A stretch of 38,637 bases of DNA from a virus (Duplodnaviria > Heunggongvirae > Uroviricota > Caudoviricetes): positions 337,301 to 375,937 of IMG/VR virus record IMGVR_UViG_3300026302_000005. One strand, 5' to 3'. Numbering within the stretch: position 1 is the stretch's first letter; each line of letters opens with the position of its first letter. Shown here piece after piece: positions 1,033 through 34,020 of this stretch. Made by a program: the position numbers and the translations under genes. The notes under the pieces are model-generated. The model was given only the letters and a program-made list of their open reading frames with translations, had not been told where the DNA came from and did not search any database.

Positions 1033-3072
1033 ATGGACTTCCTCGATTGCATTCGTCACGTGACTCTGAAAGAAGCTGCCGGTAGGTTTCCGCTGGCGGA
1101 GAACTCTGCCACATACAAACAGATGATGGGGCCGGTAATCCAGGCCATGAGCAAGCTCGATCCCGGTAAAGGTGGGGCCATCTCTGACCAGGTTGCCTAC
1201 TACAAGAATGCGCTCGGTCGTGCAGATCGAATCATCTGGGCCCTACGGTGGCTTCGTCTGAGTTGGCTCAAGAACATGCTGAACATCACCGAGGACCCAC
1301 GGAATCTCGGGCGGGAAGATCATGATGAAGAATACCGCAAGCTGACCGACTGGATATGGACGGCACACCGTAAAGCCACAGCAGAACTCCTGAAATCCAA
1401 TCCAGCTTACGACGGGAACATGGAAACCCTTCTGGATCAGCTTAGCCGATTCGACAGCAGAACGTTTGCAAACCAGCTTCACCACTTCATGTCCTACACG
1501 GACAACCAATCGACCAACTACATCAAAGCGTTGGATGATATCGTGTGGCAGTGGCAAGCCCCGGACGACCTGATCAACCAACTTCTCCAGGCCGAAAAAG
1601 ATTGGAAGGAAAGTCGAGACCAGGAACTACCCCACGCCGACGATAGCTACAGTAGTGCCAAAAAGATCATTGACTTCGGTGATGGATATGCATGGTGGAA
1701 TCTCGACGTCCAATATTGTGACGACGAGGGGTCCAGTATGGGCCACTGTGGGAATAACTCCCACATGAAGAAGGATGGTGATATCCTACTGAGCTTCCGT
1801 CAAGAGATCGTTCGTGGTGGGGAACGCTTTCATATCCCATACATGACGTTCATTCTTAACAACGGGTGGCTGGGGGAGATGAAAGGGCGGGGTAACGAAA
1901 AGCCCGCGAAGCGGTATCACCCATACATCGTTGCGTTGTTGAAGTCCAAGTATATCGAGGGGATTCGGGGCGGGGGATATTTGCCGGAGAACAACTTCTC
2001 CGTCTATGATCTGACTCAGGAGCAACGGGATGATCTGATCGCGGTCAAACCGTCTCTTGAACCATTGCTGGACAAATACAAACGTATGGGAGCCACACCA
2101 GAAGTCATCAAGATGGCCCAGGATGAAGCGTATAACGCCAGTCTACCATCAATCTATGGCATCGAAGAGGATGGAACCGTAGTCTTGCAGCACTGGGATG
2201 ATCTAACCAGACTGGCAGGCGATGTGTATGGGTTTGCCCCACTGGATGCTATCGTTAAGGCCATCGAAGACCCCGATGAAATCGATCAGGATAAGCGAGA
2301 TGCCGCCAGCGATAGACTCAATCTGGACGATCAGGACGTGTTCGAATTTCTGACCTACCTCCCAGAGCAATATGTCAAGAAAATCGCAGACAGCCTGGGT
2401 CTATCTGGGGATGTGACATCACGCAGGTTCCTGGAGAAGATTGCCCTACACGTGGATCGGTCTAAATTTCGTAGATTGATCGCCGATTCGTTCGTAGCGA
2501 CCTCCACGTTCTCCGGCATCACCGAAGAGCCAGAATTCACCGACTACATCAGTCTAGTCCTTCAAACGCTAGAACGCGGAACTTATCTAGGAAGTGCCGG
2601 TCTGCGGTGGGATGGTGATTTCGACGATCCGGTGCGACTTGAGATTTCATTCGGGGATTTTGTCTCAGGTATCGATGATGCCATGGGTGGCGATGACTAT
2701 GATTCCGATGATAGTGGCTTCCGCAATCGTGTCGGATCATCAGACTGGTTCGAAGCAGAGGGCTACAACATTCGAGATGCATGGGAAGAGTATGATCCCA
2801 AACAGAGCAACCAAGACATTCAGACCTGGAACAAGGACGGGATTGAACTTCGCAAACAGTTTGATGGCCCACTAGGATTGAATAAGAAGAAGGGTGATCC
2901 GGATTCTGATGATCTCATCATGGGTGACATCGATCACCGGGAGGCCGCTCGGTGGTTTGTCGATCACCTTGATTCGATCAAGCACCAGTCAAAGGGGTTG
3001 TTCAACTCCAAAAAGCCCAAGTCGGAGTTCGACAAGCTTCTGGAAGAGATACGAAAAAGGGCCGGTCTCTAA
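1033..3072 (+). CDS. PcfJ-like domain protein, putative head-packaged protein
   Basis: Motifs DEGSSMGHCG, LLSFR and GEMKGRGNEKP..RYHPYI resemble PcfJ-like domains. Start moved to ATG 1033 (AAGGA RBS; TAAATA at 1005-1010), because the track start at 931 overlaps the divergent HNH gene. Confidence 0.7.
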   Translation: MDFLDCIRHVTLKEAAGRFPLAENSATYKQMMGPVIQAMSKLDPGKGGAISDQVAYYKNALGRADRIIWALRWLRLSWLKNMLNITEDPRNLGREDHDEEYRKLTDWIWTAHRKATAELLKSNPAYDGNMETLLDQLSRFDSRTFANQLHHFMSYTDNQSTNYIKALDDIVWQWQAPDDLINQLLQAEKDWKESRDQELPHADDSYSSAKKIIDFGDGYAWWNLDVQYCDDEGSSMGHCGNNSHMKKDGDILLSFRQEIVRGGERFHIPYMTFILNNGWLGEMKGRGNEKPAKRYHPYIVALLKSKYIEGIRGGGYLPENNFSVYDLTQEQRDDLIAVKPSLEPLLDKYKRMGATPEVIKMAQDEAYNASLPSIYGIEEDGTVVLQHWDDLTRLAGDVYGFAPLDAIVKAIEDPDEIDQDKRDAASDRLNLDDQDVFEFLTYLPEQYVKKIADSLGLSGDVTSRRFLEKIALHVDRSKFRRLIADSFVATSTFSGITEEPEFTDYISLVLQTLERGTYLGSAGLRWDGDFDDPVRLEISFGDFVSGIDDAMGGDDYDSDDSGFRNRVGSSDWFEAEGYNIRDAWEEYDPKQSNQDIQTWNKDGIELRKQFDGPLGLNKKKGDPDSDDLIMGDIDHREAARWFVDHLDSIKHQSKGLFNSKKPKSEFDKLLEEIRKRAGL

Positions 3073-4031: not shown

Positions 4032-5534
4032 TCAACCCAACGCCTGAATCATTTCTTCGGCTGAGTTGAACTTCCGACTGTTCATGAAGAACCGCCCGGA
4101 CCCGCGATGCACCGTGATATAGTCACGGAGTTCCCGTTTGGCCTGTCGGGTCGGTGGGTGGTCGAACTGAATGACCAGTTCTCCAGTCCCACGTGCATGA
4201 GTGCGAACCCGTATCCATCCATGCTCCAGACCCACTTCCACCGCGATCTCCCGACTATCCGCGTCGTCTTCGTCTTCCAACCGCTGATCCACGATGGCGT
4301 CTAGTTCTGGATCATCGAAGACAAACTCAGCATGGTGGATCGGCTCCATGGGGTTCGGCTCCAGATGCAGAACTTCACCGTTCGGCTTGACCCAACAACC
4401 ACCCCATTCCAATTGGGACTCGGAGATCGGGTCTTGTGACACGATGCGTATCCTTTTCGGATCAAAGACGGCGTAGTCACGACGGATCACCGTATCATAC
4501 AGTAGATCGGTGTCGGACTGCTCAATCACGATGCCATCATATCCCTGACGGATGAGTGCGGTCCGCATCTGCTTGTTGCCATTATAGTTGTCGAAGTCGG
4601 CCAGGAAGTCCTGGTAGGTATCATAGGATTTCATTTTGTTCAGGTCGATGCTGGCAGTGACCAGAACCGGATTATCATCAACCATACGCTGGGCAGACCT
4701 ACCGATGTATTTTGCAACCTCTGGGTTCTCGGTGAACCAGATGCCGATACCGCTCGGATGAAATTTGTTGTCCTGGCTATACATCCGACCAGTGATCTTT
4801 CGTGGGGCCCCATGATAGAGTGTATGATCGGCCATCTCATTGCGGATAACATCGATCAGTCCCGGAGACATCACCATCCGCACGGTAGCAGCGGGCCCAC
4901 CACCCATGTAGTTGTCCTGGATACCAACAACGTCTACGATATCGAAGCCAAACTCATCCACGATGGCGGCTAGACTGTCGGTGCTGATTCGGTTGCCATC
5001 GCCTCGGACCTGGTTGGCAAACTGGGCCAGTGCATGATCGATCTGATCCTGCTGGATACCCGCTGATCGTAGTCCTTGTCGCACTGAATCAATACTGATG
5101 CCCCGGAAGTTCTGTCCCCGCCCGTTGATGGTGAGGGTTTTGCCAGGTTGGACGTGAACCGGTATGATGCCGGGAACTGCGGCCTGGTGATCGAATGCCA
5201 GTTTGTCATCGGCGTAAGTCTTGGCTACAGATCGATTGTTCGTCAAGAACACCGGTGAACGCACCTTCTTGAATTGGGTAAGCTTGGCGATTGCATCCAA
5301 CAAATCCCAGTATTTCGGTGGGCGATCCTGACCGGTCATCAGCGGCATCTGCGCAATCTGTGCCTGGATAGCCTTCCATTGATCGGGATCGGTGATGTAG
5401 CTGACCGATAGTGTGCGGTTCTCGAACTTGGTGAAATTCTGGAGTTCCGGGGTGCCGTGATACCACACAGTAGTGTCGGCCTCGTTCACCGAGGGGGTAT
5501 GGGTTTGGCTATGGAATAGTTCTAGCAGTCGCAT
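4032..5534 (-). CDS. three-module protein with two ADP-ribosyltransferase-like (ART-PolyVal-like) domains
   Basis: Module 1: WYHGT...VFLT....AKTYA...GFD. Module 2: LYHG...GIWFT....AKY...GYDGIV...YAVFDP. Module 3: GCWVKPNG...HH...GWIRV. Starts MRLLELF; TAAATA at 5553-5558. Confidence 0.7.
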   Translation of the reverse strand: MRLLELFHSQTHTPSVNEADTTVWYHGTPELQNFTKFENRTLSVSYITDPDQWKAIQAQIAQMPLMTGQDRPPKYWDLLDAIAKLTQFKKVRSPVFLTNNRSVAKTYADDKLAFDHQAAVPGIIPVHVQPGKTLTINGRGQNFRGISIDSVRQGLRSAGIQQDQIDHALAQFANQVRGDGNRISTDSLAAIVDEFGFDIVDVVGIQDNYMGGGPAATVRMVMSPGLIDVIRNEMADHTLYHGAPRKITGRMYSQDNKFHPSGIGIWFTENPEVAKYIGRSAQRMVDDNPVLVTASIDLNKMKSYDTYQDFLADFDNYNGNKQMRTALIRQGYDGIVIEQSDTDLLYDTVIRRDYAVFDPKRIRIVSQDPISESQLEWGGCWVKPNGEVLHLEPNPMEPIHHAEFVFDDPELDAIVDQRLEDEDDADSREIAVEVGLEHGWIRVRTHARGTGELVIQFDHPPTRQAKRELRDYITVHRGSGRFFMNSRKFNSAEEMIQALG

Positions 5535-16029: not shown

Positions 16030-16587
16030 TCAGCCCAGTCTGATCTTCTTCCCGATCTCAAAGTGCCGTCGTAGCTTTGCGATGACACCGGCAGATGCCT
16101 GTCGTAGATCACCCGGGTATTTCCACCCCTGAAATGGAGTCTCCCACCCCTTGGTGGTGATCTTCTCGCCGGTATCGAATTCCACACCACGAGCGGACTC
16201 AATCCACCCATGTAGTCCATATCGTTCCCGTGCCCAAGCATCGATTGGGATCACCCTGGTGATCTTGATCAGATTGAAGTGGTCGGCATCAACAAAGGTC
16301 TCTCCACCCCATCGTCCGAGGCGATCCAACTGATAGACAGCAGGATCGACTGCAAACTCAACCACAAACGGTCGTAGGTATCCATGCCCGTTCACCCATT
16401 TCTCGACATCAGCAGTCAGATATATGCCCCGGTTTCCTTCCCGAGAGGATATTGAGATTGCGTTGTCTTCCGGGGCAAAGTTGGGATCAAGGACGAATTT
16501 GGCATTATCGGTCAAATGATATAGCAGCGTGGGCTGCTGTTGTTCCACGATTCGGGTCCTGTGAGATGATAGATCATGAAGTCTCAT
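16030..16587 (-). CDS. ADP-ribosyltransferase-like single-domain protein
   Basis: LLYHLT...F.....GIYLT......GE.FV. Starts MRLHDL...RIVE. TAAATA at 16654-16659. Confidence 0.55.
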   Translation of the reverse strand: MRLHDLSSHRTRIVEQQQPTLLYHLTDNAKFVLDPNFAPEDNAISISSREGNRGIYLTADVEKWVNGHGYLRPFVVEFAVDPAVYQLDRLGRWGGETFVDADHFNLIKITRVIPIDAWARERYGLHGWIESARGVEFDTGEKITTKGWETPFQGWKYPGDLRQASAGVIAKLRRHFEIGKKIRLG

Positions 16588-16614
16588 ACTACACCTACCG
16601 AGCGGAACAAAGTC

Positions 16615-16643
16615 TTGACATGCCCGGAAATCCCTGTTAAAGC
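16615..16643 (+). promoter_or_regulatory. sigma70-like promoter TTGACA-N17-TAAAGC
   Basis: Upstream of the RNA ligase, divergent from the late promoter at 16654. Confidence 0.55.
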
Positions 16644-16672
16644 TGCTGCATCGTATTTACGGAGGAATCATC

Positions 16673-18726: not shown

Positions 18727-18971
18727 GCACGAAGGGGAAATACGTGATCCTGGACGGATACCTCTGCGAACTTCCGTTCATCTTCCACAACTCGATCAGT
18801 CATGACAATTTTGCGCAAGCTCTTTCCCACCTGGGAAAGCCGGTGAGTGCCGGGTTCGTAGATGTGGTGGATGGGGAAGTGTCGGCTCATGGCAAATCCT
18901 ACAGTCTCAAGTTGGGATCACGCCCGGTCGATTCGGAAATCATTCAACGGCTTATGGGCCAAACGGAGTAG
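18723..18971 (+). CDS. phage hypothetical protein
   Basis: KYV.....PFIF...ISH....VSAGF......G.S.SL...SR..D pattern; ATGA-coupled. Confidence 0.7.
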   Translation: MSTKGKYVILDGYLCELPFIFHNSISHDNFAQALSHLGKPVSAGFVDVVDGEVSAHGKSYSLKLGSRPVDSEIIQRLMGQTE

Positions 18972-19057
18972 GTCAGCGGACGGTGCCGGGAACTGATACC
19001 CTTCCCAAACATCCGCAGCAGAAGCCGGGGCCCTCCTTTTACCCTGGTGATTCTGCC

Positions 19058-21995: not shown

Positions 21996-22001
21996 TAAAT
22001 A
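21996..22001 (+). promoter_or_regulatory. late-type promoter TAAATA heading the 12 kb operon
   Basis: Intergenic, 27 nt before ATG 22028. The same hexamer precedes the lysin and PAAR genes. Confidence 0.65.
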
Positions 22002-22027
22002 TCGGAGAACCTCTGGAGAATTCCCCG

Positions 22028-24337
22028 ATGAAATCGTCCCTCGTCCACCACTTGATGGAAAACGCCAAAATCTCAAAGTCTGCACCGGGTGAAATGCACA
22101 AGCCGGGTTATGAGAACATTCATACTCCAGACAATCACACAACGGGCAAGAAAAAGCGTGAAGTCGATGGGTCTCGTAATCTCGGCGGGACACCCGACGG
22201 TGCCAAGCGAACACCACAGGTTCAGCCCCCAAAGGCCAAAGAACGTCGCAGCATGACGGAGAATTCCGTCGTTGATGCCATCATGGGATTCATGATGAAG
22301 ATGTCCGGGCCCAAATTTGGTCGTCAGCTTTACGACCAACTCAAGAACGAAGAGCCGGGACTTTACAAAGAACTCGTCGATATGTTCACCAGCCTGGTTA
22401 GCCGTGGCAATCTGACGGATCGTCAGATGATGGCCGCTCTTCAACAGGACCCGAGGGCTATGCCATTGGCGATGAAAATCCGCGATTGGGCCCAAGACAA
22501 ACTACCCCCACAATTCGATGATTGGGCGGAAAAGAAAAGCCGGAAGCTCGGGCTGGGCGAAGACTTCGCCGATAACCCCGATGGCAAGGCCGTGCCGGTG
22601 ACATCCAAGGCCAAAGACAAAGACGAAGGTATGAAGAAGCCATCGGTTGCCAAGGCCGGTCCAGTGGCCCGTGGTGCCCGTATTGGATCGATTGGTGACA
22701 ACAAGGACAACCCCGCAGACATCGGTAAGGTCCGCAAGCTCCCTGCCGGATACACCGGTGGGGTGTCAGCACCGATCAAAAAGATTCGGGAAGGACTGCG
22801 GTCTCTCACCAAAGACCTCGGCAACCTCAAACTGGACCCCAGTGTGATGCGGGATGTGTTCGAAAACTATCCAGACGATATGGATTGGAATGTGTTCGAC
22901 CGCTACATGGGGACAGGCGATGATGAGGCCGCATATGATGATGCTATGGAGCAAATGCGGGATGCCGTAGAGCATGCCATCGGCAAGGACCTACAGGCAT
23001 ACGCCCGAGAGATCAAATCGAGTGATGATCCGGAATCCCGTATGGAGTCCATTACAGGTTTCTACGAGGCCATTCTTGATGTTGCAAGTGAGGCCATGTC
23101 GGAATTCGATGATGCCGACTACGTTGGCCACGTAAACAAACAGTTCATTGCGGCACTATCCCGATACGTCGATAAGGGCGAGATCAAGCAGGCCATTCGT
23201 GATTACACCGGGAATGAACCGGTGGAAGAGATGTCTTCTGGTGGGGCCGTGGGTGCGGGTGCCATTCCGGCTACCACTGTGGCCGGTGGTCAACGTCATC
23301 GCAGCCAGCTATTCGCTGATGCTGAGGCTGGAAAAAACCCGGATGGAATCGACTTCATTCCACAAACCGTCAAGTCTTACATTATGGCGTTGGATGCCTA
23401 TATGGAGCCTACCCACGGATTGACCTGGGATGCCATTGGAGCAGATTCGGTGCAGATCAAGCGAGCCATCCAAGCTGGAATGACCCCACAGGAGTTTGCC
23501 GATGGTATCGCCGAACACATGGGGCTGACAGACGATCCAATGGAGTCTTCCGGAAAAAAGCCGTTTGGCGGGCCCGGTAGAAACCGTAAGCCCGCCGTCG
23601 AGGCTGGTGGCTACGATCCCTACCCAGGACATCACCCGGCTGGCAAGCCGCAATACAAGACGTATCGCGATCTCGTCAACCTCGTGAAGGAACGATTGAA
23701 GGCACCCGGCAATACCCTGACCACACAGCAAATGGCCGGTCAGGTTGCAAGGGAATTCGCCGGTCAGTTCGGGCCCTTCGAGCGCACCTTCGATCAACTG
23801 ATGCAATTGATTCGTGGTGATGAGATTGGCACTCGTCATGGTGTGAAAGAAGATGGTGAAGACATCTCCACCTATGGCCAATACGCAGACAAACTTCGTA
23901 GTATGGGAATTCGCAGTATGGGCGGCAGCAAAGCCGAAACTGTGAACAATGCGATGGCATTCCGGTTCGCTATGCCGAAAGCCTACAACACCCCGAGGGC
24001 CGGAACCCTGGATGTCTATGTGCGTGGAGATGCAGAAGGGCCGTTCAATCCCCGACCCGTAATCGGATGGAGGATGTCCCAGGTTCCGCACCAATTCACC
24101 GGTCTCGGAAAAGGATGGGATGAACTGGTTCAACGTCTTGAAGCTCTGGACGGAAATCCGAAGACCGAGGACGCCCATGACATGATGCCCCGGCAGACCC
24201 AACAGATCGACCGGGGTAACGCGATGGGGTTCAAAGACGCGGATGAAATCCTTGACCCGGCCAGCATTCCGTATGGTCCGAACTCCGGTGATCCCCGGGC
24301 CAACGAAAGTGTCAAGCGTCCAAGCCGTTACAAGTGA
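22028..24337 (+). CDS. large putative internal head/core protein with many [LVIM]-x-E sites
   Basis: Charged and low-complexity segments separated by LME, MTE, LGE, IRE, VEE, PME, VKE and ANE; no catalytic motif recognised. Confidence 0.6.
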   Translation: MKSSLVHHLMENAKISKSAPGEMHKPGYENIHTPDNHTTGKKKREVDGSRNLGGTPDGAKRTPQVQPPKAKERRSMTENSVVDAIMGFMMKMSGPKFGRQLYDQLKNEEPGLYKELVDMFTSLVSRGNLTDRQMMAALQQDPRAMPLAMKIRDWAQDKLPPQFDDWAEKKSRKLGLGEDFADNPDGKAVPVTSKAKDKDEGMKKPSVAKAGPVARGARIGSIGDNKDNPADIGKVRKLPAGYTGGVSAPIKKIREGLRSLTKDLGNLKLDPSVMRDVFENYPDDMDWNVFDRYMGTGDDEAAYDDAMEQMRDAVEHAIGKDLQAYAREIKSSDDPESRMESITGFYEAILDVASEAMSEFDDADYVGHVNKQFIAALSRYVDKGEIKQAIRDYTGNEPVEEMSSGGAVGAGAIPATTVAGGQRHRSQLFADAEAGKNPDGIDFIPQTVKSYIMALDAYMEPTHGLTWDAIGADSVQIKRAIQAGMTPQEFADGIAEHMGLTDDPMESSGKKPFGGPGRNRKPAVEAGGYDPYPGHHPAGKPQYKTYRDLVNLVKERLKAPGNTLTTQQMAGQVAREFAGQFGPFERTFDQLMQLIRGDEIGTRHGVKEDGEDISTYGQYADKLRSMGIRSMGGSKAETVNNAMAFRFAMPKAYNTPRAGTLDVYVRGDAEGPFNPRPVIGWRMSQVPHQFTGLGKGWDELVQRLEALDGNPKTEDAHDMMPRQTQQIDRGNAMGFKDADEILDPASIPYGPNSGDPRANESVKRPSRYK

Positions 24338-24352
24338 TTATGAGGAAACCCC

Positions 24353-24820
24353 GTGCAATTTCGCCAGCTATTCGAGAACTCCGACAACGGAACATTCATT
24401 GGCGTCAGGCTGACCACGGCCAGTGCCAATGATGTTCTGACGTGGCTCGATCAGAACAAGATCAAGAATCCCACTCCGTTTCGAGAATTGCACGTAACCC
24501 TTCTGTTGGACAAAACCAGTCCCATCGATCATTCCCCGACGCGATACGATCCTCCACTGGTGGCCGATCCTGATAGCTACAAGATCGAACTATTCGGCAG
24601 AAATCAGGACATACTGGTTCTTACGTTCGATTGTCCCCAACTGGAAGCCCGTCACACAATGCTTCGGAAGAAGTATGGAGTCCATTGGGACTGGGACGAA
24701 TACAAACCCCACATCACGTTGACCACCACAGTTCAAGAGGTCACCGAACCACTAGAACCCCCGACATTCAAAATCGAAATGGATCGGGAGTATGTGACGG
24801 AATTCGATCCATCATGGTAG
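24353..24820 (+). CDS. 2H phosphodiesterase, T4 gp57B/Acb1-like (anti-CBASS candidate)
   Basis: Two HxT motifs (LHVTL, PHITL) plus NPTP, LVLTFD..L..RH, D.YKPHITL and DREY....W, as I recall them from gp57B. GTG start with GAGG RBS. Confidence 0.8.
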   Translation: MQFRQLFENSDNGTFIGVRLTTASANDVLTWLDQNKIKNPTPFRELHVTLLLDKTSPIDHSPTRYDPPLVADPDSYKIELFGRNQDILVLTFDCPQLEARHTMLRKKYGVHWDWDEYKPHITLTTTVQEVTEPLEPPTFKIEMDREYVTEFDPSW

Positions 24821-26133
24821 CCCTGACCGAGAAGAGCAAAGACAACATCACGTTGTATCGCGGAGATTCATCCGAGGTCAAGCAATACCTTCTCGGGAAG
24901 GCCGATCCGGATGCACTGGTTGGTCGCGGTATCTATCTGACCAGTTCTTTTGCCGTCGCAAAAGACTACACCATCAAGGGAAACCAGGAGGGGGTTGTCT
25001 ACAAATCCGAACCCAATATCGACCCCCGGGAATTCCTTCGACAGGAGTTCCATAAAAAGCTCTCTGGGCCCCAGGAAATCATACTGCGGGCATTTTCTAC
25101 GGCGATTGATGATGAGGTATACCGGTTCTCCACCATCGCCCAGAACGAGATTGATCAGACCATCGGAACAGGTCGGGATGCACGACAGCACCCTCGTTAC
25201 AACGAACTTACCAGGTGGCTCTCATTGGCTCGATCCTACTGCACCGCATACCTGTGGAAGATTTCGCAGCCCGTGCTGTTCAAACATCTTCGTGGCCTCT
25301 TTGACCAGACGTATGCGGACTTCAAACAGAGCTTTGAAGGCACCCGTATGCTACAAACGGTGCTGAAAGAATTGGTGGTGCTCCGTGACGATCAGATCGG
25401 ACAAGTAGCAAGATTTCGAGTTCCAAAGAACTACCTGGATCGGACATACCGGGTTGACGATCCCATGCCGGGGTGGCTGATCACGTGGATCGCCCGCTAC
25501 AGCCATGATGTCACCGGCCAGGATATCTCTACCAAAAGAGTCGATCTTCGCTACAATGATCCCACCAAGGGTGAAACCCATGCGGATAATCTCGGGGATT
25601 GGTTGGACAAGTTCCGCGAACATGGCATGCGGTATGCATGGAGTGAACACAATGTTGGGGGCAATGGGGAGAACCCGTCACTGCTGGAATTCATTCTGGG
25701 CACCCATTTCGGCGGTATGCTCCAGCATCAGCCCGTGAAGGAGAATCAGAAACCTCTGTGGGATGCACTGATCGACTTCCTGATCACCCGGGGTTACAAG
25801 GGGTTCCACTATCAAGGTGGTCGCAGAACCGGTGGAGGACACTTTGCAGGCGGTTCGCCTATCAAGCATGATGCCTATTCCCTATGGATCGAAAAGGACA
25901 TCCAGGGCTTCCGTGTGAGTGCCAAACCACTAGGGTTGGATGGCACCGATCCCAGGCTGTTTCAGCGGTTCCGGTTCGACACGACGATGAACCAACTGAA
26001 CCAGTATTTCGACTATCATACCCGCCCGCTCAAGTATCGCGATGATGTTGCCAATGTTGCCCAAATAGAGGATACGGCTCAAGCATGGTTGTCGTCCGGA
26101 GCACTCGATAAGAAGTTGGGAGTCGAAGTATGA
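24814..26133 (+). CDS. ADP-ribosyltransferase-like protein
   Basis: ITLYRGD......GRGIYLTSS..VAKDY and a late GYKGFHY motif. Start MVALTE at 24814. Confidence 0.6.
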   Translation: MVALTEKSKDNITLYRGDSSEVKQYLLGKADPDALVGRGIYLTSSFAVAKDYTIKGNQEGVVYKSEPNIDPREFLRQEFHKKLSGPQEIILRAFSTAIDDEVYRFSTIAQNEIDQTIGTGRDARQHPRYNELTRWLSLARSYCTAYLWKISQPVLFKHLRGLFDQTYADFKQSFEGTRMLQTVLKELVVLRDDQIGQVARFRVPKNYLDRTYRVDDPMPGWLITWIARYSHDVTGQDISTKRVDLRYNDPTKGETHADNLGDWLDKFREHGMRYAWSEHNVGGNGENPSLLEFILGTHFGGMLQHQPVKENQKPLWDALIDFLITRGYKGFHYQGGRRTGGGHFAGGSPIKHDAYSLWIEKDIQGFRVSAKPLGLDGTDPRLFQRFRFDTTMNQLNQYFDYHTRPLKYRDDVANVAQIEDTAQAWLSSGALDKKLGVEV

Positions 26134-28037
26134 GATTTTTGGAGTTCATCAAAACACCGAGCACTACAACAACGGTGAAGCTGGTGGAATCTGATCGCAT
26201 TCGCGTTGGCATGTCCAGCTACGATGTGGACTACAACGATCATGGCGGTCGTATCACCATGGACGTCACCCAACAGGGCATGACGGTGGCCGAGCTTGTC
26301 TATGAGGGTGATGAGATCGTATGGATACACGTAGAGCCGTGGTTCCGCAAGCAGGGGCTGGCACAGGCCATGCTTGATTATCTACGGGGTCGCGGGCTCA
26401 AGGTTCAAATGCCGGATGCAAGGACACAGGATGGCAAAGGCTTCTTCTCTGCCATGTCTCAGCGTGGCAAACTGGATGAGATCGAAGACATCGGCACCCT
26501 GGATGACACCGACAATGCCCATGAAGCATCCACGATGGTTGTCCCACCCGGATCAAAGCCACTGACAACATTTACGGTTGGATCAATGCAGGTGGTGTTG
26601 CACCTGACGGTATCCCGGGAGTTCGCATTTACGGTCAACGATAAAGTCGAAGGCTTTGCCAGCTACAGCACCGGGACCAAGGATCAGATCGGTAAGTGGA
26701 TCGAAGTCGGTCATATCTGGTTGAGCCCGATGATCCGTCACAAAGGATTGGGAAAGCAGTTCTACAAGTTCTTGTTGGATCAGCAGAACTATGCGATCAT
26801 CAGCGATGACTACCAGTCCGAGGCTGCACAGACCGTGTGGATGCGGCTGGTGGATGAATACGAAGCCGCAATCCTTCACGATGGGGTATACGTCGAGCCG
26901 TTGACCAGGTTCGAGCAATTCGACAGTGCCTACTACACCACTGACGGTGAAGGCAACGAACTGGACTATTCCATCACGATTGCCGTATTCCCACGCAAGC
27001 GGACCACGCCGCTACAAGAATCGCTCACCGAGGATGATGGGGAATTCGATTGGTCCAAACCCACCACGTTGTATCGCGGTGTGGTCGATCCTGCACATGC
27101 TGAGAAACCATTCTCCGGCACCCGACTGGGTGTCCCGACGTTTACCGACAACTGGCACATAGCGGATGTCTATGCCACCAGTCCGAATAATCGTGCCGAC
27201 GCAGGGAAGTCCGATCAGGTCTATGCGTATCGGCTGAACATCCAGAAACCGATCCATCTGAATGAGGGTCGAGAGGATGTGACCGAGGCCAACAACATCC
27301 TACCAAAGCTTGGTATCACCAATGTTGATCAGGCATGGGCCGCGTTCCGGAAACTCTACGCAGCTATGGAACAGGCCAGGGAAAACACCTGGAGATGCAA
27401 TGGTGAAACCTTCCTGACAGACGAAACCCCACCATATCGGATCGAGGGAATCGACAATGGAAAGGGATTTGCATTCCCGGATCGTGAATACACCAACCTG
27501 AAAGAGATATTCTACGAGCACTGGCAGCACAATTGGCCTGGACTGTATTGCACCAGTTTCAACCTGGCCAATTCCACCACGTTCCAACAGATGTGCCGGG
27601 ATGCCGGGTTCGACGGGATTGTCATGTATGGTTACAATCAGGGGCCGGATTACGAGGATGACGATGACATCTTCACTGGAACCAGCTATGACGGAACCAC
27701 CGTCATGGAGTGGAGAGCTTTGTATCCGGAGCAGATTGAATTCCTGGGACCGGCTGGTGATCCACGGTCACAGTCGATGACGGAATCTCCAAGCCTGACC
27801 AAAGCAGTTCCATTCAAGGTTAATTCCGTCAACGATAAAGAAGTTGAGTATGTGTTCATTCAAGCTGGGACCGAGTATCTGGTCCAATTCTCACGACATT
27901 TTAACAATGGCGATGCGGTAAGCGAATTCATAACGTTCGATGCGGGTAAACAGACACCAACTGACAATTGGTCAGTCGGGATGACACAATCCGATTGGGG
28001 GGGCAGAACCCTCCAATACCTATCGCGATGCACTTGA
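26130..28037 (+). CDS. polyprotein part 1: GNAT + GNAT + ART-like + start of repeated domain
   Basis: VEPWFRKQGLA and LSPMIRHKGLG (acetyl-CoA motif A); TLYRG..PTFTD...A..YA..GFDGIV. Starts MRFLEFI. Confidence 0.75.
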   Translation: MRFLEFIKTPSTTTTVKLVESDRIRVGMSSYDVDYNDHGGRITMDVTQQGMTVAELVYEGDEIVWIHVEPWFRKQGLAQAMLDYLRGRGLKVQMPDARTQDGKGFFSAMSQRGKLDEIEDIGTLDDTDNAHEASTMVVPPGSKPLTTFTVGSMQVVLHLTVSREFAFTVNDKVEGFASYSTGTKDQIGKWIEVGHIWLSPMIRHKGLGKQFYKFLLDQQNYAIISDDYQSEAAQTVWMRLVDEYEAAILHDGVYVEPLTRFEQFDSAYYTTDGEGNELDYSITIAVFPRKRTTPLQESLTEDDGEFDWSKPTTLYRGVVDPAHAEKPFSGTRLGVPTFTDNWHIADVYATSPNNRADAGKSDQVYAYRLNIQKPIHLNEGREDVTEANNILPKLGITNVDQAWAAFRKLYAAMEQARENTWRCNGETFLTDETPPYRIEGIDNGKGFAFPDREYTNLKEIFYEHWQHNWPGLYCTSFNLANSTTFQQMCRDAGFDGIVMYGYNQGPDYEDDDDIFTGTSYDGTTVMEWRALYPEQIEFLGPAGDPRSQSMTESPSLTKAVPFKVNSVNDKEVEYVFIQAGTEYLVQFSRHFNNGDAVSEFITFDAGKQTPTDNWSVGMTQSDWGGRTLQYLSRCT

Positions 28038-28038
28038 G

Positions 28039-30543
28039 GTGTTTTCCACCACCTTAGCGGTGATGTCTGATTTTGTGGACAGATTTAAGCCAGATCGTAT
28101 GGACCTACAAACGGCAGGAGTAAGAGCGACCCTCTATAAGAAACTCCTACCTGGATTTGCCAAACAAAACGGTCTTCAATTCCGTATCAATCGCGACGAG
28201 GATTCCTATGTTTCAATAAGCCTGATAAATCCAAAGGCGTCCGTGACCGAAGCCTTGACCAGTTCTCTTCCGTTCCAGAAGCGGGCAGGTGATGTATTGG
28301 TGAACTACGACTTCGAATACCAGGGCCAGGAATTCCGGGTTGGGTTCAAGCGCACGTATGATGCATGGAACGTCGTGTTCGTGAACAAGAACCAGGACGT
28401 CCCGTTCGAACCCACCGGTCTGGGTGGTGGCATACCGGTGTTGTCCACTGTGATGGCAATCGTCAAGGATTTCGCACAGACCACACCGACAGCAACGGCA
28501 ATCCGGTTCTCCGGGGAAAACCATAACGGGCTGGCCGATCTCTATCGACAGATCGTCCGAACCATGTCCAAACGACTGGGCCTGCGGTATGAAGAAGACC
28601 GGCTGCGTGGTCAGACCCAATTCCTGGTTCATCTACGTAAGACGGTGACCGAGGCATTCGATACGACTCCTGCACAGTTCACGCTTTACAGCATGGAGCC
28701 ATCAGAGGCGTTCTACTACTTCACCGCCAATGATATGGAGTTCGAGGTTGAGTTCTCGTTCGAAGACCGTGATGATAGCGGTATGAGACTGTCACAACCG
28801 TATTGGAAAATCCTGTATGGTCCGTCGGATCGTGGCGAATCCAAATGGGGCCCGACCGGTGCTGGTGGTGCTGGTGAAATCCTGTCCACGGTGATTGCCA
28901 TCATCCAAGACTTCATCAAGCGTAAGCCCAAGATTCAGGTCTTCCAGTTCACTGCCAGCGGCGGATCGCACGTCCGTTTGTATTCCACCATGGTGCCGTA
29001 TCTGGCTAACCGACTGAACTTCGACTACACCAAGCGTGAAAGCGAGTATGGTGGCTATGAATGGTTGGTCTATCCCCATGTTCCGTTGCACGAGACTGTG
29101 CAATACTCCGATGCCATGTTGGAGCAGTTGTTCGCTGCCATCTATCGAGACCGCACGTTTGCTCGTGAGACCTCGACCCCAATTGACGAATTTGCTCAGA
29201 GGTTGGAAGACGAGTATATCGATTATGTTCCCCCAATGGTGTGGTGGGAGCCTGGGCATCCAGATATCACCAGCACTCCAGAGTGGTGGGACGGCTTCAA
29301 GGTGTGGTTGGAGAAGCGGTATCGATATGTGGTTCGGAACATCCAGGCCGAGATCGGTGGGTATCCGGCACAAGTGATGCGAGAGATGAACGTAACGGCC
29401 CGGTGGAACCCGGCCAAACATGGTCTGGGTCTGTATTGGGCCACCCCAGGTGCGGACATCCATGCCTTTTCCGGCAAAGAGGGCCCGGAGTATCAGACTG
29501 TCCACCTGACAGCAGAAATCCAAGAGTCCGACATCAACTGGTTCGATACCATTCGCTCACGCCTGGACTTCTTCAACGGGGACGAAGAGCAGGAAATTCA
29601 ACTCAAGCCTGGTGCGATGATCAAGCTGTTGGAGATCGATGACACCCTGTATACGCATGGCTCCCAGGGCTTCCGACTGAACGTGCAGCCCGGTGTGTAT
29701 CCGTCCAGCACAAATACAACCGCATATGAATCGCTCAGTTCTGTTCAGACCCATACCCCAAAGCAGATCGCGATCAAACATGGTGTGGACGTCTCGGTGA
29801 TCTCCAAACAACTGACCAAAGGCATCGCGGTCGAGCACGAGCACACCACCAGCCCATCAGAGGCTCGCCAGATCGCCCTGGATCACCTTTGGGAGCTTCC
29901 AGACTACTATGACCGCCTGGGCAGCATGGAGCGTCAGGCGGGCCTCACAGAGGGCCCTGCGGTGCCTCTACGGGTTACCCCTACGATGGTTAGGAGAGCC
30001 GCTGACAACAAATGCCAGATCATCGTGGAGATACCGATCCAACAGTTCCTGAATATGACCACCTGGGATCAGGAAAGCCGCGACATCATCATGAAGAAAT
30101 CCCACTCGGTCATCGACTATAACCGATGGGCCAAGATGGGTGATAACTCAGATACGGCAAAGCGGTTCAACGCTATGTGGCAGAGACGGCATGAAGAGGA
30201 AACCGATGACCCCTATGAGCGGGTCTACGGGAACGATCTGATGCCATGGTTGACCATCTATCTGGACGATGATGGCAGTATGGGTCGCATCATGGGCCAC
30301 GAGGGACGCCACCGGGGTTCTGCTGCAATGCGGGCTGGTGCCAAGACCATGCAGGTTGCCCTTCGCATCCATGCTGGCAAGAACATGTTCCCGGATCAAT
30401 ACAGTCCGGACTACTTCATCACACAAGAACATCTACCCAAATACGTCATAGGTCAGTTTGACAAGGACGTGTATCCGACCGGTGGTTGGAAAATCCTTGA
30501 AGGTGATCTCCAGAAGAGAACACGAGAGAGGTTTTCGAAATGA
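28039..30543 (+). CDS. polyprotein part 2: repeated unknown domain, ART-like (EQE), DUF5661, ParB/Srx-like module
   Basis: TG.GG...LSTV..I..DF repeats; GLYW...EEQEIQL; KGIAVEHEHT..A..IALDHLWE.PDYY..L; GHEGRHR. No clear RBS before the GTG; probably continuous with the upstream ORF. Confidence 0.72.
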   Translation: MFSTTLAVMSDFVDRFKPDRMDLQTAGVRATLYKKLLPGFAKQNGLQFRINRDEDSYVSISLINPKASVTEALTSSLPFQKRAGDVLVNYDFEYQGQEFRVGFKRTYDAWNVVFVNKNQDVPFEPTGLGGGIPVLSTVMAIVKDFAQTTPTATAIRFSGENHNGLADLYRQIVRTMSKRLGLRYEEDRLRGQTQFLVHLRKTVTEAFDTTPAQFTLYSMEPSEAFYYFTANDMEFEVEFSFEDRDDSGMRLSQPYWKILYGPSDRGESKWGPTGAGGAGEILSTVIAIIQDFIKRKPKIQVFQFTASGGSHVRLYSTMVPYLANRLNFDYTKRESEYGGYEWLVYPHVPLHETVQYSDAMLEQLFAAIYRDRTFARETSTPIDEFAQRLEDEYIDYVPPMVWWEPGHPDITSTPEWWDGFKVWLEKRYRYVVRNIQAEIGGYPAQVMREMNVTARWNPAKHGLGLYWATPGADIHAFSGKEGPEYQTVHLTAEIQESDINWFDTIRSRLDFFNGDEEQEIQLKPGAMIKLLEIDDTLYTHGSQGFRLNVQPGVYPSSTNTTAYESLSSVQTHTPKQIAIKHGVDVSVISKQLTKGIAVEHEHTTSPSEARQIALDHLWELPDYYDRLGSMERQAGLTEGPAVPLRVTPTMVRRAADNKCQIIVEIPIQQFLNMTTWDQESRDIIMKKSHSVIDYNRWAKMGDNSDTAKRFNAMWQRRHEEETDDPYERVYGNDLMPWLTIYLDDDGSMGRIMGHEGRHRGSAAMRAGAKTMQVALRIHAGKNMFPDQYSPDYFITQEHLPKYVIGQFDKDVYPTGGWKILEGDLQKRTRERFSK

Positions 30544-31160
30544 CCAAGATGATCGATTTTATCGCTGGAAAGCTGACTCCCCTCACCGAGGATATCTTTA
30601 GTCTGGATGGTGATATGGGACCAATCAAAGTGTCTGCATCGCCGGTGCAGCAGCACGAGGTCAAAAAGATGATCGCTCGGGGCAAGGGTTTACGGATTCT
30701 GGTTGGTTCCGGGAAATTCAGGGATATGCTGGTCGTATGGGTTGGTGATTCGGAATCCGATGTCGGGGCAATCCATGAGACGGTTGCAGAACAGTTCGGT
30801 ATGTCCATGATTGATCGCCATGTCCCGCTGGAACTGACCGTGAGTGGACAGATGCGGCTCACCACAACTGCGGTAGGTATCTTCGACACTCCGCGTGAGG
30901 TAGAGGACGTATTGGATCGAAACAAGGAATATCGGGCGATCTTTGGGTCCTACCGTGTCAACTATCGCAACCTACATGAATCCGACGTGTTCCAGCCCGA
31001 GCCGATTTCGGTCGGGGACGAAGTTTTGGCCGGAAAGTTCAAGAACAGCAAACGAGTCGTCAAGGGGTTCAAAACCGACAAACACGGCCAACCGGTATTG
31101 AAAACCGACAAGGGTGATACCCAACTGTTCAAACCACGAATCGCGAAGTTAGACAAATGA
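30540..31160 (+). CDS. two-module hypothetical protein
   Basis: LTE and LHE boundaries; C-terminal basic module ISVGDEVLAGKFKNSKRVVKG..TDKHGQP. Confidence 0.7.
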   Translation: MTKMIDFIAGKLTPLTEDIFSLDGDMGPIKVSASPVQQHEVKKMIARGKGLRILVGSGKFRDMLVVWVGDSESDVGAIHETVAEQFGMSMIDRHVPLELTVSGQMRLTTTAVGIFDTPREVEDVLDRNKEYRAIFGSYRVNYRNLHESDVFQPEPISVGDEVLAGKFKNSKRVVKGFKTDKHGQPVLKTDKGDTQLFKPRIAKLDK

Positions 31161-31705
31161 GACTCCAAGATATCACCGAAGGGCGGGATGCCCCACTCTA
31201 CCATGGCACCAAGATGGTAAGCTTGCTGAGCATCCTATACCATGATAGCCTTGATAAAGGTATGTATTGGAATCGTCCCGGCGAACCAGATGGTCCCAGG
31301 CTGTCTAGAGCTTTTGTAACGGCCTGGTCATTTTCGGAAGATGATGGGGAAGGTCGTGATGGGGCGGTCTTAGAATTAAATCAAACACTTCTAGCACAAC
31401 GGTATCGCATAGTTCCGTATGCAGATGTAGATGGACAGGGTGAAAATTGGTCAAATGAGTCCGAAGAGGTCGTCGTAACCAAGGCAATTGCACCACTATC
31501 GAAGTATCTGACTGGTATCTATATCCCACATGCAGCCATCCAGGCGATTCTAACTGATCCCGAGCAGATGGAGTGGTGGGCCGAAGTGGAACTTGCCGCT
31601 ATGTATCCCACTGCCGATCACATCGAACAGGCATTGCTGAATTTGTCTAGACACCCCCTACGAAAGGACATGGACAACTTCATGTCTCATACCGGACCAA
31701 GGTAA
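31157..31705 (+). CDS. ADP-ribosyltransferase-like protein
   Basis: PLYHGT...LSR.F..A..F...AVLEL....NESEEVV. Starts MRLQDITE. Confidence 0.55.
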   Translation: MRLQDITEGRDAPLYHGTKMVSLLSILYHDSLDKGMYWNRPGEPDGPRLSRAFVTAWSFSEDDGEGRDGAVLELNQTLLAQRYRIVPYADVDGQGENWSNESEEVVVTKAIAPLSKYLTGIYIPHAAIQAILTDPEQMEWWAEVELAAMYPTADHIEQALLNLSRHPLRKDMDNFMSHTGPR

Positions 31706-31713
31706 ATACCGGT

Positions 31714-34020
31714 ATGAGATTCCTTGAATTCAACACGTTCGTTTCCACAGGCCGGTTCTTGACCGAACGGGATGTCATGAACGCTCCTGCAATCAAGCAG
31801 TGGGCGTTGCAAGCGGCACAGCGTGTTCAAAACCCCACGGCCCGGGCCTGGTTCCAATCCCAGGTCTACGATCACCTGATCAATCAGACCACCGATAGTT
31901 CCATGGTTCAGCGGGTTCGGGATTTGCCCCCGGAGGCTCCGGAATGGCTGGTTCAGAAGATGGATATGGGATCACCGGTCTTTACGGTCACCCCATCCAA
32001 TGCATTCAATCTGGAGATGCAAACGGTCGCGGATTGGGTCAATGCATGGATCGAGGAAAACCCAGGTGCCCGCATCCCTCATACATGGGCCCAGGCCGTC
32101 AGAGCATCGGATGAGTGGCACAAGGACCTGGCTAAGGGCGCGACCTATGGCGAAGAAGACCCTAACGATGATGGACTAAGCACCCTCATGGAGTTTCCCG
32201 ATGGTTTCAAATGGGTCATCGTATCCTCAGCCACATGCTTGAAGCGTGAGGGTGGTCGCATGGGTCACTGCGTGGGTGGATACCACCAGGATGTTGCCAG
32301 TGGCAACACCGTCATCCTTTCGCTACGGAGCCCCAGGAATACCCCACACTGCACGATTGAAGTGAACGAACCAGATCAGGTATGGTGGAACACCATGGCC
32401 AAACTGTCCCGTCTGATTGCGGCAGACAAACAGCGATCCGTGGATAACCCGAATCAACCAGAACTCGATTTTGGTATGACCACCCAGGTGCCAAAAACCC
32501 AACACGCCGGTGTGATCAATCAGATCAAAGGCAAACAGAACAAACCCCCGGTTCCGAAGTATGTGCCCTACGTTAAGGCACTGATGGATGCCTATACGTT
32601 TACCATGTCCAGCTATGGTCAGTCGGACTTGGAGAATGTGGGATACTACTTCCGTGAAGGGAAAATTCTTACACTGAAAGAGGTTGCCAAGCCATATCGG
32701 AAATATCCGTCGGGCAACGCCTGGGTGTTTGTGGAACAGACCTCAGAGTTCATCAGCCTAAAACTGGTCAACAAGTCATGGCAGCAACAGGTCAGCATCG
32801 GAGCCCACCCCACACGGGACAACCAGTTGAACAGCAGCTTCACGATCAATACCGATAGTCCCTTGCAGTTCCGACCGGAAGTGCTCGACCTGGTATCGAC
32901 CTGGAAGGGAACCATCAATCCCGGCATGGCAAAAAGTCTGTCCGATTTCGACATCTATATGAGCTACCCCACGGGTGGCCATCTACATTCGAACGAAGAG
33001 ATGCCGGAGACCGGATACAAATTCGGAACACCAGATGAGGTCTCTGATATCAAACTGGTTCTATCCGATATCGAACCGGTCATCACGATCTATCAACTTG
33101 TGAACTTCATCAACGACCGGAACTACCCGGCGATAGACTTGATGATGTTCGATGACAAGAACCGGTTTACTGGTGTAGCACCGGTTCACACTGGCAAGGA
33201 CGGTAATAAGGTTCTGGGGACGCTCAGTCTGAAACGCGACACCTACACCAGATTGCCTGAATTGATGATGGCCATCTCTAAGAAGATCGGCATTGGCATT
33301 CAGAACTCCGATCTACTCGGTATTCAACCGGATGGCTCAGTGCGTGACAAGGCATCGTATGGCGAGGAGGTCATGGATAGCCAGAACGGCGACTATGTGT
33401 TCTTCGAAGCTTCGGAGGAAGACGAGGGTTATCCAACCCTATGGGTGTTCGATCAGATTTCCGAAAATATCCCGATTGCGTGTATCGAGTTCCTGGATAG
33501 CTATCGAAATCTCAAGAAGGCCAAAATCAGATCGGCCATCTATACGACCGATAGTTGGTCGGATGGGGGCATTCTCGGATATCTCCTGTTGTGCATACAA
33601 GAGTCTGGGCAATATGACGTCACCATGAGTGAAAGTGAACTGTCCGATTACGGATGGGTCGAGTATGAAGGCTCCTATTACTACTCCGGTGGAGCCGACA
33701 ACATTCGGATCGAAGAGACTACCACAGAGACGGATTCGGAAGGTAACGATAACGTCACTGGGCCCAACGATATCCTGATGTATCAGATTGATGAAATCGC
33801 CGGTGGTTCTGAATTTGAATCCTACGGTCAGACCTACGCGGCTATCCTGGCCAACGGTCGATACCGGTATACCGATGAATCGTATGATGAAGATGAGAAT
33901 GAGGTCGGGACCGAATACTACTGGGAACTGTCTAACGGACAGCAATCAGAGGTAGGATGGTTGGAGTTTTTCGGTTACGACCATCAAATGGTCAGAAAAC
34001 TTCAACGTGGCAGCGACTAA
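31714..34020 (+). CDS. PcfJ-like domain protein, putative head-packaged protein
   Basis: REGGRMGHCVGGY, LSLRSPRNTPHCTIEV and NQIKGKQNKPP..KYVPYV. Starts MRFLEF...FLTE. Confidence 0.75.
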   Translation: MRFLEFNTFVSTGRFLTERDVMNAPAIKQWALQAAQRVQNPTARAWFQSQVYDHLINQTTDSSMVQRVRDLPPEAPEWLVQKMDMGSPVFTVTPSNAFNLEMQTVADWVNAWIEENPGARIPHTWAQAVRASDEWHKDLAKGATYGEEDPNDDGLSTLMEFPDGFKWVIVSSATCLKREGGRMGHCVGGYHQDVASGNTVILSLRSPRNTPHCTIEVNEPDQVWWNTMAKLSRLIAADKQRSVDNPNQPELDFGMTTQVPKTQHAGVINQIKGKQNKPPVPKYVPYVKALMDAYTFTMSSYGQSDLENVGYYFREGKILTLKEVAKPYRKYPSGNAWVFVEQTSEFISLKLVNKSWQQQVSIGAHPTRDNQLNSSFTINTDSPLQFRPEVLDLVSTWKGTINPGMAKSLSDFDIYMSYPTGGHLHSNEEMPETGYKFGTPDEVSDIKLVLSDIEPVITIYQLVNFINDRNYPAIDLMMFDDKNRFTGVAPVHTGKDGNKVLGTLSLKRDTYTRLPELMMAISKKIGIGIQNSDLLGIQPDGSVRDKASYGEEVMDSQNGDYVFFEASEEDEGYPTLWVFDQISENIPIACIEFLDSYRNLKKAKIRSAIYTTDSWSDGGILGYLLLCIQESGQYDVTMSESELSDYGWVEYEGSYYYSGGADNIRIEETTTETDSEGNDNVTGPNDILMYQIDEIAGGSEFESYGQTYAAILANGRYRYTDESYDEDENEVGTEYYWELSNGQQSEVGWLEFFGYDHQMVRKLQRGSD

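Follow-up and report, generated by a model that had tools for sequence, protein, structure and literature searches.

Mullaney and Black reportedly described, in 1996, a capsid-targeting sequence on the internal proteins of bacteriophage T4. This sequence is carried by IPI, IPII, IPIII, Alt and gp24 and is removed by the prohead protease gp21 (PMC9026906, PMC3012670). It comprises 10–19 residues, of which residues 4 and 7 are needed for targeting and residues 8 and 10 for processing, and it is the only feature common to the T4 internal proteins, a diverse anti-defence set (PMC9026906, PMC3012670, PMC5694885). Here, leaders of a similar form are described in a T4-related, uncultivated phage of 376 kb, represented by the IMG/VR record IMGVR_UViG_3300026302_000005 (375,937 bp, 53% G+C, completeness estimate 93%). 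The stretch analysed, hereafter the window, is the final 38.6 kb of this record (38,637 nucleotides (nt), positions 337,301 to 375,937), and it contains an operon at positions 21996–34020 whose proteins begin with such leaders and whose large proteins carry a hydrophobic-x-Glu motif at the joints between their modules. The most likely reading, with a probability of roughly 0.6 and based on the analogy with T4, is that these genes encode late-made, head-loaded and protease-trimmed cargo proteins.

In the T4 genome (NC_000866), the leaders read MKTYQEFIAE/A in ipII and ipIII, MKTFKEFTSTTTPVSTITE/A in ipI, MAKINELLRE/S in gp24 and MMELITELFDE in Alt, and the maturation site of gp23 reads ..FLTE/AEIGG (here and below, a slash stands at an actual or predicted cut). 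In both phages, a short N-terminal peptide on unrelated proteins has a Met-basic start, an acidic and then aromatic or Leu core and a final L/I-x-Glu; the short leaders of the phage described here resemble those of ipIII and gp24, and its leaders of 18–20 residues with a Ser/Thr/Pro spacer (MRFLEFIKTPSTTTTVKLVE/S, MRLLELFHSQTHTPSVNE/A) resemble that of ipI. Judged by these letters, the leaders of the two phages are the same kind of peptide. The likeness extends to a genome that encodes both an S77 protease and a head module in T4 order, to a predicted late promoter box, and to a predicted cargo that includes proteins of the ADP-ribosyltransferase type and anti-defence proteins. T4, however, has a handful of small single-domain cargo proteins, whereas about 25 are found here, several of them longer than 1000 residues and with up to nine modules, and the cleavage motif is present at every module joint. 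The leader letters also differ (MRLFDLFE or MRFLEF.. versus MKTYQEFIAE), and the system described here is known from sequence alone.

It was predicted that polyvalent proteins are packaged and then injected along with the DNA (Iyer, Burroughs, Anand, de Souza, Aravind 2017; PMC5512222). Similar to them, the proteins described here include long chains of disparate enzyme domains (ART-PolyVal, GNAT beside ART, a DdrB-like domain of the ParB type, nucleotide-signal-degrading enzymes). Processing of polyvalent proteins was proposed to occur by built-in zincin-like MPTase domains (PMC5512222), whereas no match to the MPTase-PolyVal peptidase PF18818 was found across the 376-kb genome, and consequently no such alternative cutter is available for the chains. 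In the text of PMC5512222, neither a capsid-targeting leader nor prohead-protease sites at domain joints are present. Polyvalent-protein genes are recognized, among other things, by a neighbourhood of virion or packaging genes; here, the genes do not adjoin the head genes, and only the promoter box and the leader connect them with the virion.

The phiKZ-like phages (phiKZ, 201phi2-1, SPN3US; gp175/gp245 protease) are likewise giant phages with many head-packed proteins (PMC5694885, PMC7411985, PMC10052503). Their T4-related protease cuts cargo after Glu, sometimes at several sites per protein (PMC5694885), and conserved N-termini on their diverged paralogues were taken as similar to capsid-targeting sequences. 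There, however, the motif is [A/S/G]-x-Glu, the propeptides mostly exceed 100 residues (PMC5694885), and the cargo is represented mostly by structural proteins or RNA polymerase subunits and not by chains of small enzymes, whereas the phage described here belongs to the T4 capsid lineage and has an L-x-Glu motif. The Dar proteins of phage P1 (DarA, DarB, DdrB, Hdf) are anti-restriction proteins loaded into the head at assembly and injected (PMC9024508, PMC12810830); some of them are proteolytically processed, and DdrB is a ParB-like polyvalent protein. In contrast to the system described here, their loading order follows from protein–protein dependencies, with no common short leader and no repeated cleavage motifs at domain joints. 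A full-text literature search found no paper in which polyvalent proteins are connected with both a capsid-targeting leader and prohead-protease sites at the joints of domains.

The features of the operon (g1 to g8) and of three leader genes outside it are as follows; protein lengths are in amino acids (aa).

21996..22001, plus strand: TAAATA box, the putative late promoter of the operon, 32 nt ahead of the g1 start.
22028..24337, plus strand: g1, 769 aa, no family match, N-terminus MKSSLVHHLME/N.
24353..24820, plus strand: g2, 155 aa, 8-residue leader MQFRQLFE/N, then an Acb1 domain (2H phosphoesterase, anti-CBASS).
24814..26133, plus strand: g3, 439 aa, MVALTE/KSKDNITLYRG.., ART-like start (YRG) by motif only.
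26130..28001, plus strand: g4, first part of the polyprotein, 20-residue leader MRFLEFIKTPSTTTTVKLVE/S, Pfam GNAT matches.
27997..28003, plus strand: G7 run, +1 frame shift within DUF6934-like repeat 1, by which the polyprotein is divided between g4 and g5.
28003..30543, plus strand: g5, continuation of the polyprotein, Pfam and PHROG matches.
30540..31160, plus strand: g6, 206 aa, MTKMIDFIAGKLTPLTE/D, no family match.
31157..31705, plus strand: g7, 182 aa, MRLQDITE/GRDAPLYHGT.., ART-like start by motif only.
31703..31708, plus strand: further TAAATA box, at 11 nt from the ATG of g8, of the recurring class TAAATAYCRGYATG, no Shine-Dalgarno sequence.
31714..34020, plus strand: g8, 768 aa, leader MRFLE/FNTFVSTGRFLTE/R, PcfJ-like domain and further modules of unknown type.
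1033..3072, plus strand: leader gene outside the operon, 679 aa, MDFLDCIRHVTLKE/A, own TAAATA.
4032..5534, minus strand: leader gene outside the operon, 500 aa, MRLLELFHSQTHTPSVNE/ADTTVWYHGT, own TAAATA, ART-PolyVal (PF18760, E 7.1e-9).
16030..16587, minus strand: leader gene outside the operon, 185 aa, MRLHDLSSHRTRIVE/QQQPTLLYHLT, TAAATA 67 nt upstream.

The N-termini quoted in a preliminary description of this DNA, seven in the operon (MKSSLVHHLME, MQFRQLFE, MVALTE, MRFLEFI..KLVE, MTKMIDFI..LTE, MRLQDITE, MRFLEF..FLTE) and three outside it (genes at 1033, 5534 and 16587), were all recovered as quoted. The TAAATA sequence said to head the operon and the three outside genes is present at each of them; the boxes stand ahead of g1 (21996), g8 (31703) and the three outside leader genes. 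The tight gene coupling reported there is represented by ATGA overlaps at g3/g4, g5/g6 and g6/g7 and by a 7-nt overlap of g2 and g3. The module names Acb1/2H, GNAT, PcfJ and DUF5661, given from the letters, agree with Pfam. The naming of ART-like modules stands in part: ART-PolyVal was found in the nearby gene at 5534 and at other places of the genome, but Pfam is silent for g3, g7 and the middle of g4, which have YRG/YHGT motifs only, and no ART-PolyVal, the hallmark domain of polyvalent proteins, was detected in the operon's own proteins.

The whole genome was scanned for the leader in a set of 456 genes obtained with a simple gene caller written for this analysis. The strict pattern, M-[RKQD]-[LFI]-x-[EDQ]-[LFIC], which was drawn up after the data were seen, heads 19 of the 456 genes, against about one expected (column-shuffle mean 1.05, maximum 6 in 2000 shuffles of N-termini), and occurs at only 6 of 2905 internal Met positions. 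With about eight further genes that nearly match, the leader set comprises approximately 25 to 27 genes (for example, MRLFDLFE, MKLLDLFE, MRLLQLIE, MRFLEF), spread over the genome beyond the operon. An [LI]-x-E ending at residues 7–20 was found in 13 of the 19 leader proteins versus 17% of the others. Four of the ten genes longer than 1000 aa carry the leader (three strict, one near match at G000 19722). The leader is real and not a product of chance.

Its distribution in relatives is similar. A HMMER search with g5 gave 3038 hits, and the local matches of the best 150 homologues were used to delimit modules; of these 150, which come from other phages in public metagenomes, 39 have the strict leader at the start, many others have a near match of it, and the leader was found on each of the different modules among them. 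Strict leader genes number 14 in the relative G002 (84% capsid identity) and eight in G003 (61%), and three leader genes were found in an unrelated phage contig of 39% GC with a TATAAATA box.

Paralogy or chance, with no function of the common N-termini, is a very improbable explanation. Several leader proteins start ART-like domains, so that part of the set could be one family, and the post hoc origin of the pattern also speaks for this explanation; on the other side, outside the leader, phmmer detected no similarity of the operon proteins to one another or to other proteins of the phage and two relatives, by which paralogy was rejected as the source of the leader. Moreover, unrelated folds and families follow the leader (Acb1, GNAT, PcfJ, DUF5661, ParB-like, ART-PolyVal, NUDIX and a PARP-like domain), and the excess over the shuffled N-termini and the independent recurrence among the g5 homologues argue in the same direction.

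Head genes were found in T4 order at 76–87 kb of the genome, namely, genes of the portal protein (phrog_213), an acidic protein, the protease, a protein with coiled coils that occupies the scaffold position and the major capsid protein, which is of the gp23 type (phrog_138, E 2.7e-90). A T4-type prohead protease, on the presence of which the preliminary description had made its proposal depend, is thus encoded within a T4-ordered head module; its gene is located at G000 83691-84374, and it belongs to the S77 family (PF03420, 80.9 bits, E 1.6e-23, over the cut-off; phrog_207, E 6e-46). The protease itself has DLIE at residue 10, the counterpart of LIE-9 in T4 gp21 (PMC9026906). When 62 distinct N-termini of capsid proteins, taken from related IMG/VR contigs, are aligned, the capsid propeptide shows four L-x-E sites, invariant or nearly so, the last of which, K-x-L-x-E followed by N/S-A-S/T, lies just ahead of the segment aligning with the mature N-terminus of T4 gp23. 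The N-terminus of g1, MKSSLVHHLME/N, has the same L-M-E/N as the predicted capsid maturation site.

The TAAATA sequence occurs 12 times in the window versus 4.8 expected, a number reached in none of 100 shuffles. In the whole genome, 74 of 114 copies have a gene in the same sense starting no more than 100 nt downstream, mostly 20–40 nt away, and among these genes are those of the capsid, portal, tail sheath and terminase, as well as 12 leader genes. Since TAAATA stands ahead of structural genes, it behaves as a late (structural) promoter box, like TATAAATA of T4. To judge from this box, the leader genes would be expressed late.

Synonymous codon positions of the leader differ freely, and therefore it acts at the protein level; a motif of DNA or mRNA (recombination cassette, downstream box) was rejected on the same ground. 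Other roles of the leader and the junction motif, namely, a site for a cytoplasmic phage or host protease, a degradation or localisation tag, or a feature of translation start in late messages, are improbable. In several late genes, the ATG does follow the box at 11 nt without a Shine-Dalgarno sequence, so that their first codons could matter for initiation; the link to the capsid is indirect, and the operon does not adjoin the head genes. Against these roles, besides the free synonymous positions, most leader genes have an ordinary Shine-Dalgarno sequence, the motif equals both the conserved capsid propeptide sites of this phage and the verified gp21 sites of T4, the leaders match the experimentally defined capsid-targeting sequences of T4 in length, charge pattern and end (PMC9026906), and no other dedicated peptidase was found. 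By analogy with T4, it is quite likely that the leader serves as an address and propeptide.

The proposed mechanism of head loading is as follows. The leader starts with M, which a basic and then a hydrophobic residue follow; after one variable position (x) come an acidic and another hydrophobic residue, in some cases a spacer of Ser/Thr/Pro, and at the end [L/I/V/M]-x-Glu. As in IPI–III, Alt and gp24 of T4, it would bind the scaffolding core, and the protein would be built into the prohead, where the S77 (gp21-type) protease would cut after the leader Glu. One leader would load a chain of up to nine enzymes, the same protease would free the modules (roughly 20 or more in all, as proposed in the preliminary description) at hydrophobic-x-Glu in the linkers, and the freed small proteins would leave via the tail with the DNA. 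Predicted cargo enzymes are GNAT, ART-like, DUF6934-like, DUF5661, ParB/Srx-like, Acb1 and PcfJ-like proteins. According to this scheme, enzymes needed in the first minutes would be produced late from the promoter of the structural genes and serve the following infection; such early-acting cargo may include Acb1, directed against cyclic-nucleotide defence signals, and ADP-ribosyl- and acetyl-transferases. We infer loading, cleavage and injection by analogy.

Genes g4 and g5 form one reading frame, in which a DUF6934-like repeat crosses the g4 stop and the frame is shifted by +1 at the G7 run; read through, it encodes about 1,470 residues in nine modules. The predicted chain ends are E20 for the leader, E117 (LDE) for GNAT 1, E297/E301 (LQE, LTE) for GNAT 2, E552 (MTE) for the ART-like module, E708, E842 (both VTE) and E989 (LHE) for DUF6934-like repeats 1–3, E1201 (AYE) for module X1 (phrog_35613) and E1275 (LTE) for DUF5661; the last module is ParB/Srx-like. 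For the ParB/Srx fold, a Foldseek search against PDB gave no match at E <=0.001, and ParB, sulfiredoxin, Osa and Noc were among the weak rows only. At least two domains of disparate activity, as in polyvalent proteins, are present in g4+g5 (two GNAT, one ART-like, three DUF6934-like, X1, DUF5661 and ParB/Srx-like), and other leader proteins contain four ART-PolyVal domains and NUDIX. The junctions, with the Glu motif before the next module, are located as follows.

26472-26480, plus strand: LDE/I, in g4.
27012-27032, plus strand: LQE/S and LTE/D, in g4.
27777-27785, plus strand: MTE/S, in g4.
28243-28251, plus strand: VTE/A, in g5.
28645-28653, plus strand: VTE/A, in g5.
29086-29094, plus strand: LHE/T, in g5.
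29722-29730, plus strand: AYE/S, in g5.
29944-29952, plus strand: LTE/G, in g5.

The positions of the internal motifs in the preliminary description (27012-27032, 27777, 28243, 28645, 29086 and 29944) are all exact, and the junctions LDE (26472-26480) and AYE (29722-29730) are additional to it.

These motifs are conserved by position. In 20 of 21 homologues of the ParB-like module, hydrophobic-x-E stands exactly six residues before R[VI]TP, both when the module is internal (GLTE/GPAVPL-RVTP, SVTE/ARAPWL-RVTP) and when it is N-terminal, behind M-K/R (MRIDE/ITGKL-RITP, MRLRALFE/VTGRL-RVTP). Ahead of X1, the motif is in the same column in seven of nine homologues; one homologue begins at the domain, with no leader, and hence the motif is not part of the fold. 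DUF5661 shows the same junction tendency, less clean. After GNAT 2, a sequence ..R-T-x-P-L-x-E is common to all orthologues and is followed by ART, ParB-like, DUF5661 or another module, and after GNAT 1, L-D/Q-E is conserved ahead of differing modules; breakpoints of homology and module swaps among the orthologues fall exactly at the junction Glu. In the relative G002, a single leader heads a fusion of Acb1, encoded by the separate gene g2 in the window, with the PcfJ-like part of g8, and ILFE/R lies in the linker. Outside the window, a 1160-aa leader protein (G000 15495-18977, L002:15495-18977) contains four tandem ART-PolyVal domains (PF18760, E 1.1e-73) with the repeated unit E/..F-R-x-W-F..YHGT; LFE/A of the leader, LSE/S and MNE/D stand directly before three repeats, ISE/A ends the third repeat, and no hydrophobic-x-E was found within the 544 repeat residues. 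The residue after Glu is A, S, G, N, T or D at 23 of 27 sites versus 36% in the background (p = 2e-7, for sites picked post hoc).

The main rival to this part of the reading is that the leader loads the protein and is trimmed, and the internal motifs are uncut relics of fused leader-bearing genes, still recognizable because genes often fuse and split, the proteins being delivered intact, as the original model of polyvalent proteins has it. Modules do occur both solo with a leader and fused, and fusion would put the motif at joints automatically; in addition, T4 Alt keeps many internal hydrophobic-x-Glu sites uncut (PMC9026906), and the enrichment of the motif in linkers is modest. However, the internal joints keep the cleavage part only, and the Met-basic-hydrophobic part is found at the true N-terminus only, as expected if the site is selected and the address is not; one address per chain together with one cut per module would produce exactly this distribution. 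The Glu column kept in 20 of 21 diverged homologues, the absence of the motif within the four ART repeats and the location of the sites in exposed linkers of predicted structures also argue against uncut relics, which we regard as unlikely. For the cutting of chains at internal joints itself, the odds are about even.

Structure prediction, proposed earlier as a way of locating the Glu sites, placed them in coil or low-confidence linkers in both models obtained. In the AlphaFold model of g5 residues 330–834, the mean predicted local distance difference test score (pLDDT) is 73, with values >90 for the DUF5661 and ParB-like parts. Ahead of X1, LHE falls within 28 disordered residues, AYE stands at the end of a disordered linker of 29 residues, and LTE is located in a coil of 14 residues that connects the last helix of DUF5661 with the first one of the ParB-like module, whereas seven of eight non-junction hydrophobic-x-E sites are inside helices or strands. 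In the g4 model, residues 1–20 form a disordered tail, the first GNAT strand begins at residue 22, and three joints are in coil.

The frame shift at the G7 run divides the largest precursor. A contig from a second run (X2; like run X1, from wastewater) spans G7 without a difference, and the shift is therefore probably real in the phage; contigs of runs X3 and X4 end near G7 and are uninformative on the shift. The frame is intact in the orthologues P0001 (1198 aa), P0002 (1136 aa) and P0155 (960 aa). Neither a usable start nor a ribosome-binding site was found ahead of the downstream part, g5. By its sequence, G7 is either a recent break or a slippage site, and in the latter case it may set the amount of distal cargo made.

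Several observations weigh against cargo loading and trimming. With its reading frame shifted, the largest precursor may be produced here without its last eight modules. About 250 kb separate the operon from the head genes. Relatives G001, P0007, P0014 and P0009 carry the same modules without the leader, so loading is not obligatory for these enzymes, and cultured T4-like phages with DUF5661 proteins (Cr30, S-SRM01) also have no leader on them. Hydrophobic-x-Glu is a common tripeptide (1.86 per 100 aa), and the junction A-Y-E departs from the T4-type P3. The g4 model is poor (mean pLDDT 54), with low confidence in the ART-like part. In six linkers defined without reference to the motif, it was counted 6 times in 131 aa versus 16 times in 913 folded aa; the expectation that it would be commoner in linkers than in folds thus holds in direction (~2.6-fold) but is marginal (p ~0.05). 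Counted by linker, five or six of the six contain the motif versus 0.31 expected each (p ~0.01). The junction case is stronger in positional conservation across contexts than in raw density.

A depletion of [LI]-x-E inside leader proteins (0.69 versus 0.95 per 100 aa, p = 0.005) was rejected, as it disappeared after correction for composition. [LIVM]-T-E is about twofold over composition (18 versus 8.4) and lends weak support. Automatic peak-calling of homology end-points gave three boundaries only, with DUF5661 and ParB-like matches dominating.

Among the individual genes of the operon, g1 contains long Lys/Pro/Gly-rich stretches and may encode a basic internal head protein. Its homologue in the relative G001 (L142:39-1436) is located directly 5' of the Acb1 gene; the two proteins have FxMKMSGPKxG and SKSAPGEM in common, and the gene pair is conserved. 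The Acb1 domain of g2 (PF23474, 89 bits with a cut-off of 27, E 3.3e-25) begins at residue 12 in the profile match and carries both H-x-T motifs, HVT and HIT, from which Acb1 activity is predicted. The Acb1 domain of G002 has a different leader (MKLLEFLDIIRE/D) and forms a fusion with a PcfJ-like module. Acb1-ParB-like fusions that begin directly at the Acb1 domain, with no leader, were found in G001 (L142), P0007 and P0014; to judge from this beginning, this version is probably not loaded. In T4 (L141, NC_000866 72461-75886), ipI is located directly 3' of acb1 (57B), and the N-terminus of T4 Acb1, MMEFKDFSTG, resembles the start of the ipI leader, without the cleavage motif.

No Pfam match and no paralogue by phmmer were found for g3. 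The PcfJ-like domain of g8 was matched by PF14284 (E 4.4e-9), and it is this PcfJ part that is fused behind Acb1 in G002. The gene at 1033..3072 has homologues in G002 and a paralogous part at G000 11094. GenBank phages gave no match to the operon, g8 or the ParB-like module at the DNA or protein level (megablast and tblastn), a search for related loci based on g8 found nothing, and a homologue search with g4 found only one relative.

The box ahead of g8 belongs to a group of eight genes with TAAATAYCRGYATG, in which the late box lies at 11 nt from the ATG and a Shine-Dalgarno sequence is absent (window 31703-31716; G000 72188, 171144, 233942, 267979, 282015, 285708 and 331106). Four of the eight encode leader proteins, and the arrangement suggests leaderless or near-leaderless late messages. 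Two other genes may encode cell-wall-degrading proteins. A 174-aa gene at 9891-10415 on the minus strand, with its own ATAAATAC box and the start MSSDPISVVLHNEGGFVNHKADKGGPTKFG, looks like that of a GH108-type muramidase. An 820-aa Gly/Ala-rich late protein is encoded between a T4 baseplate-like gene and the portal gene (G000 78349-80811, L008:2349-4811); its PHROG matches are annotated as peptidase and endolysin, and it may be an ejected cell-wall-degrading protein.

Capsid-targeted cargo of T4 and polyvalent proteins are kinds already known, and the system described here is not a new category; it is of interest for its scale, modularity and predictive value. Tentatively, and with somewhat more doubt than confidence, it may represent a portable address-and-cut grammar across a large, mostly uncultivated T4-related branch, by which any enzyme or chain of enzymes could be loaded and released separately. 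Its parts would be one short leader (M-[K/R]-hydrophobic-x-[E/D]-hydrophobic..hydrophobic-x-E) and, ahead of each module, a hydrophobic-x-E joint. If this is true, injected effectors and anti-defence proteins would be readable directly from sequence, a few residues identifying proteins injected ahead of phage gene expression, a class otherwise hard to find and represented here by Acb1, ADP-ribosyl- and acetyl-transferases and NUDIX. Long polyvalent proteins would pass the tail channel because they are cut in the head, with the head protease replacing the proposed self-processing peptidase. The T4 capsid-targeting principle, already used for foreign proteins, would extend to a wider range of phages and to multi-protein cargo, and about a dozen unannotated modules of the operon would become candidates for early host-takeover or counter-defence functions.

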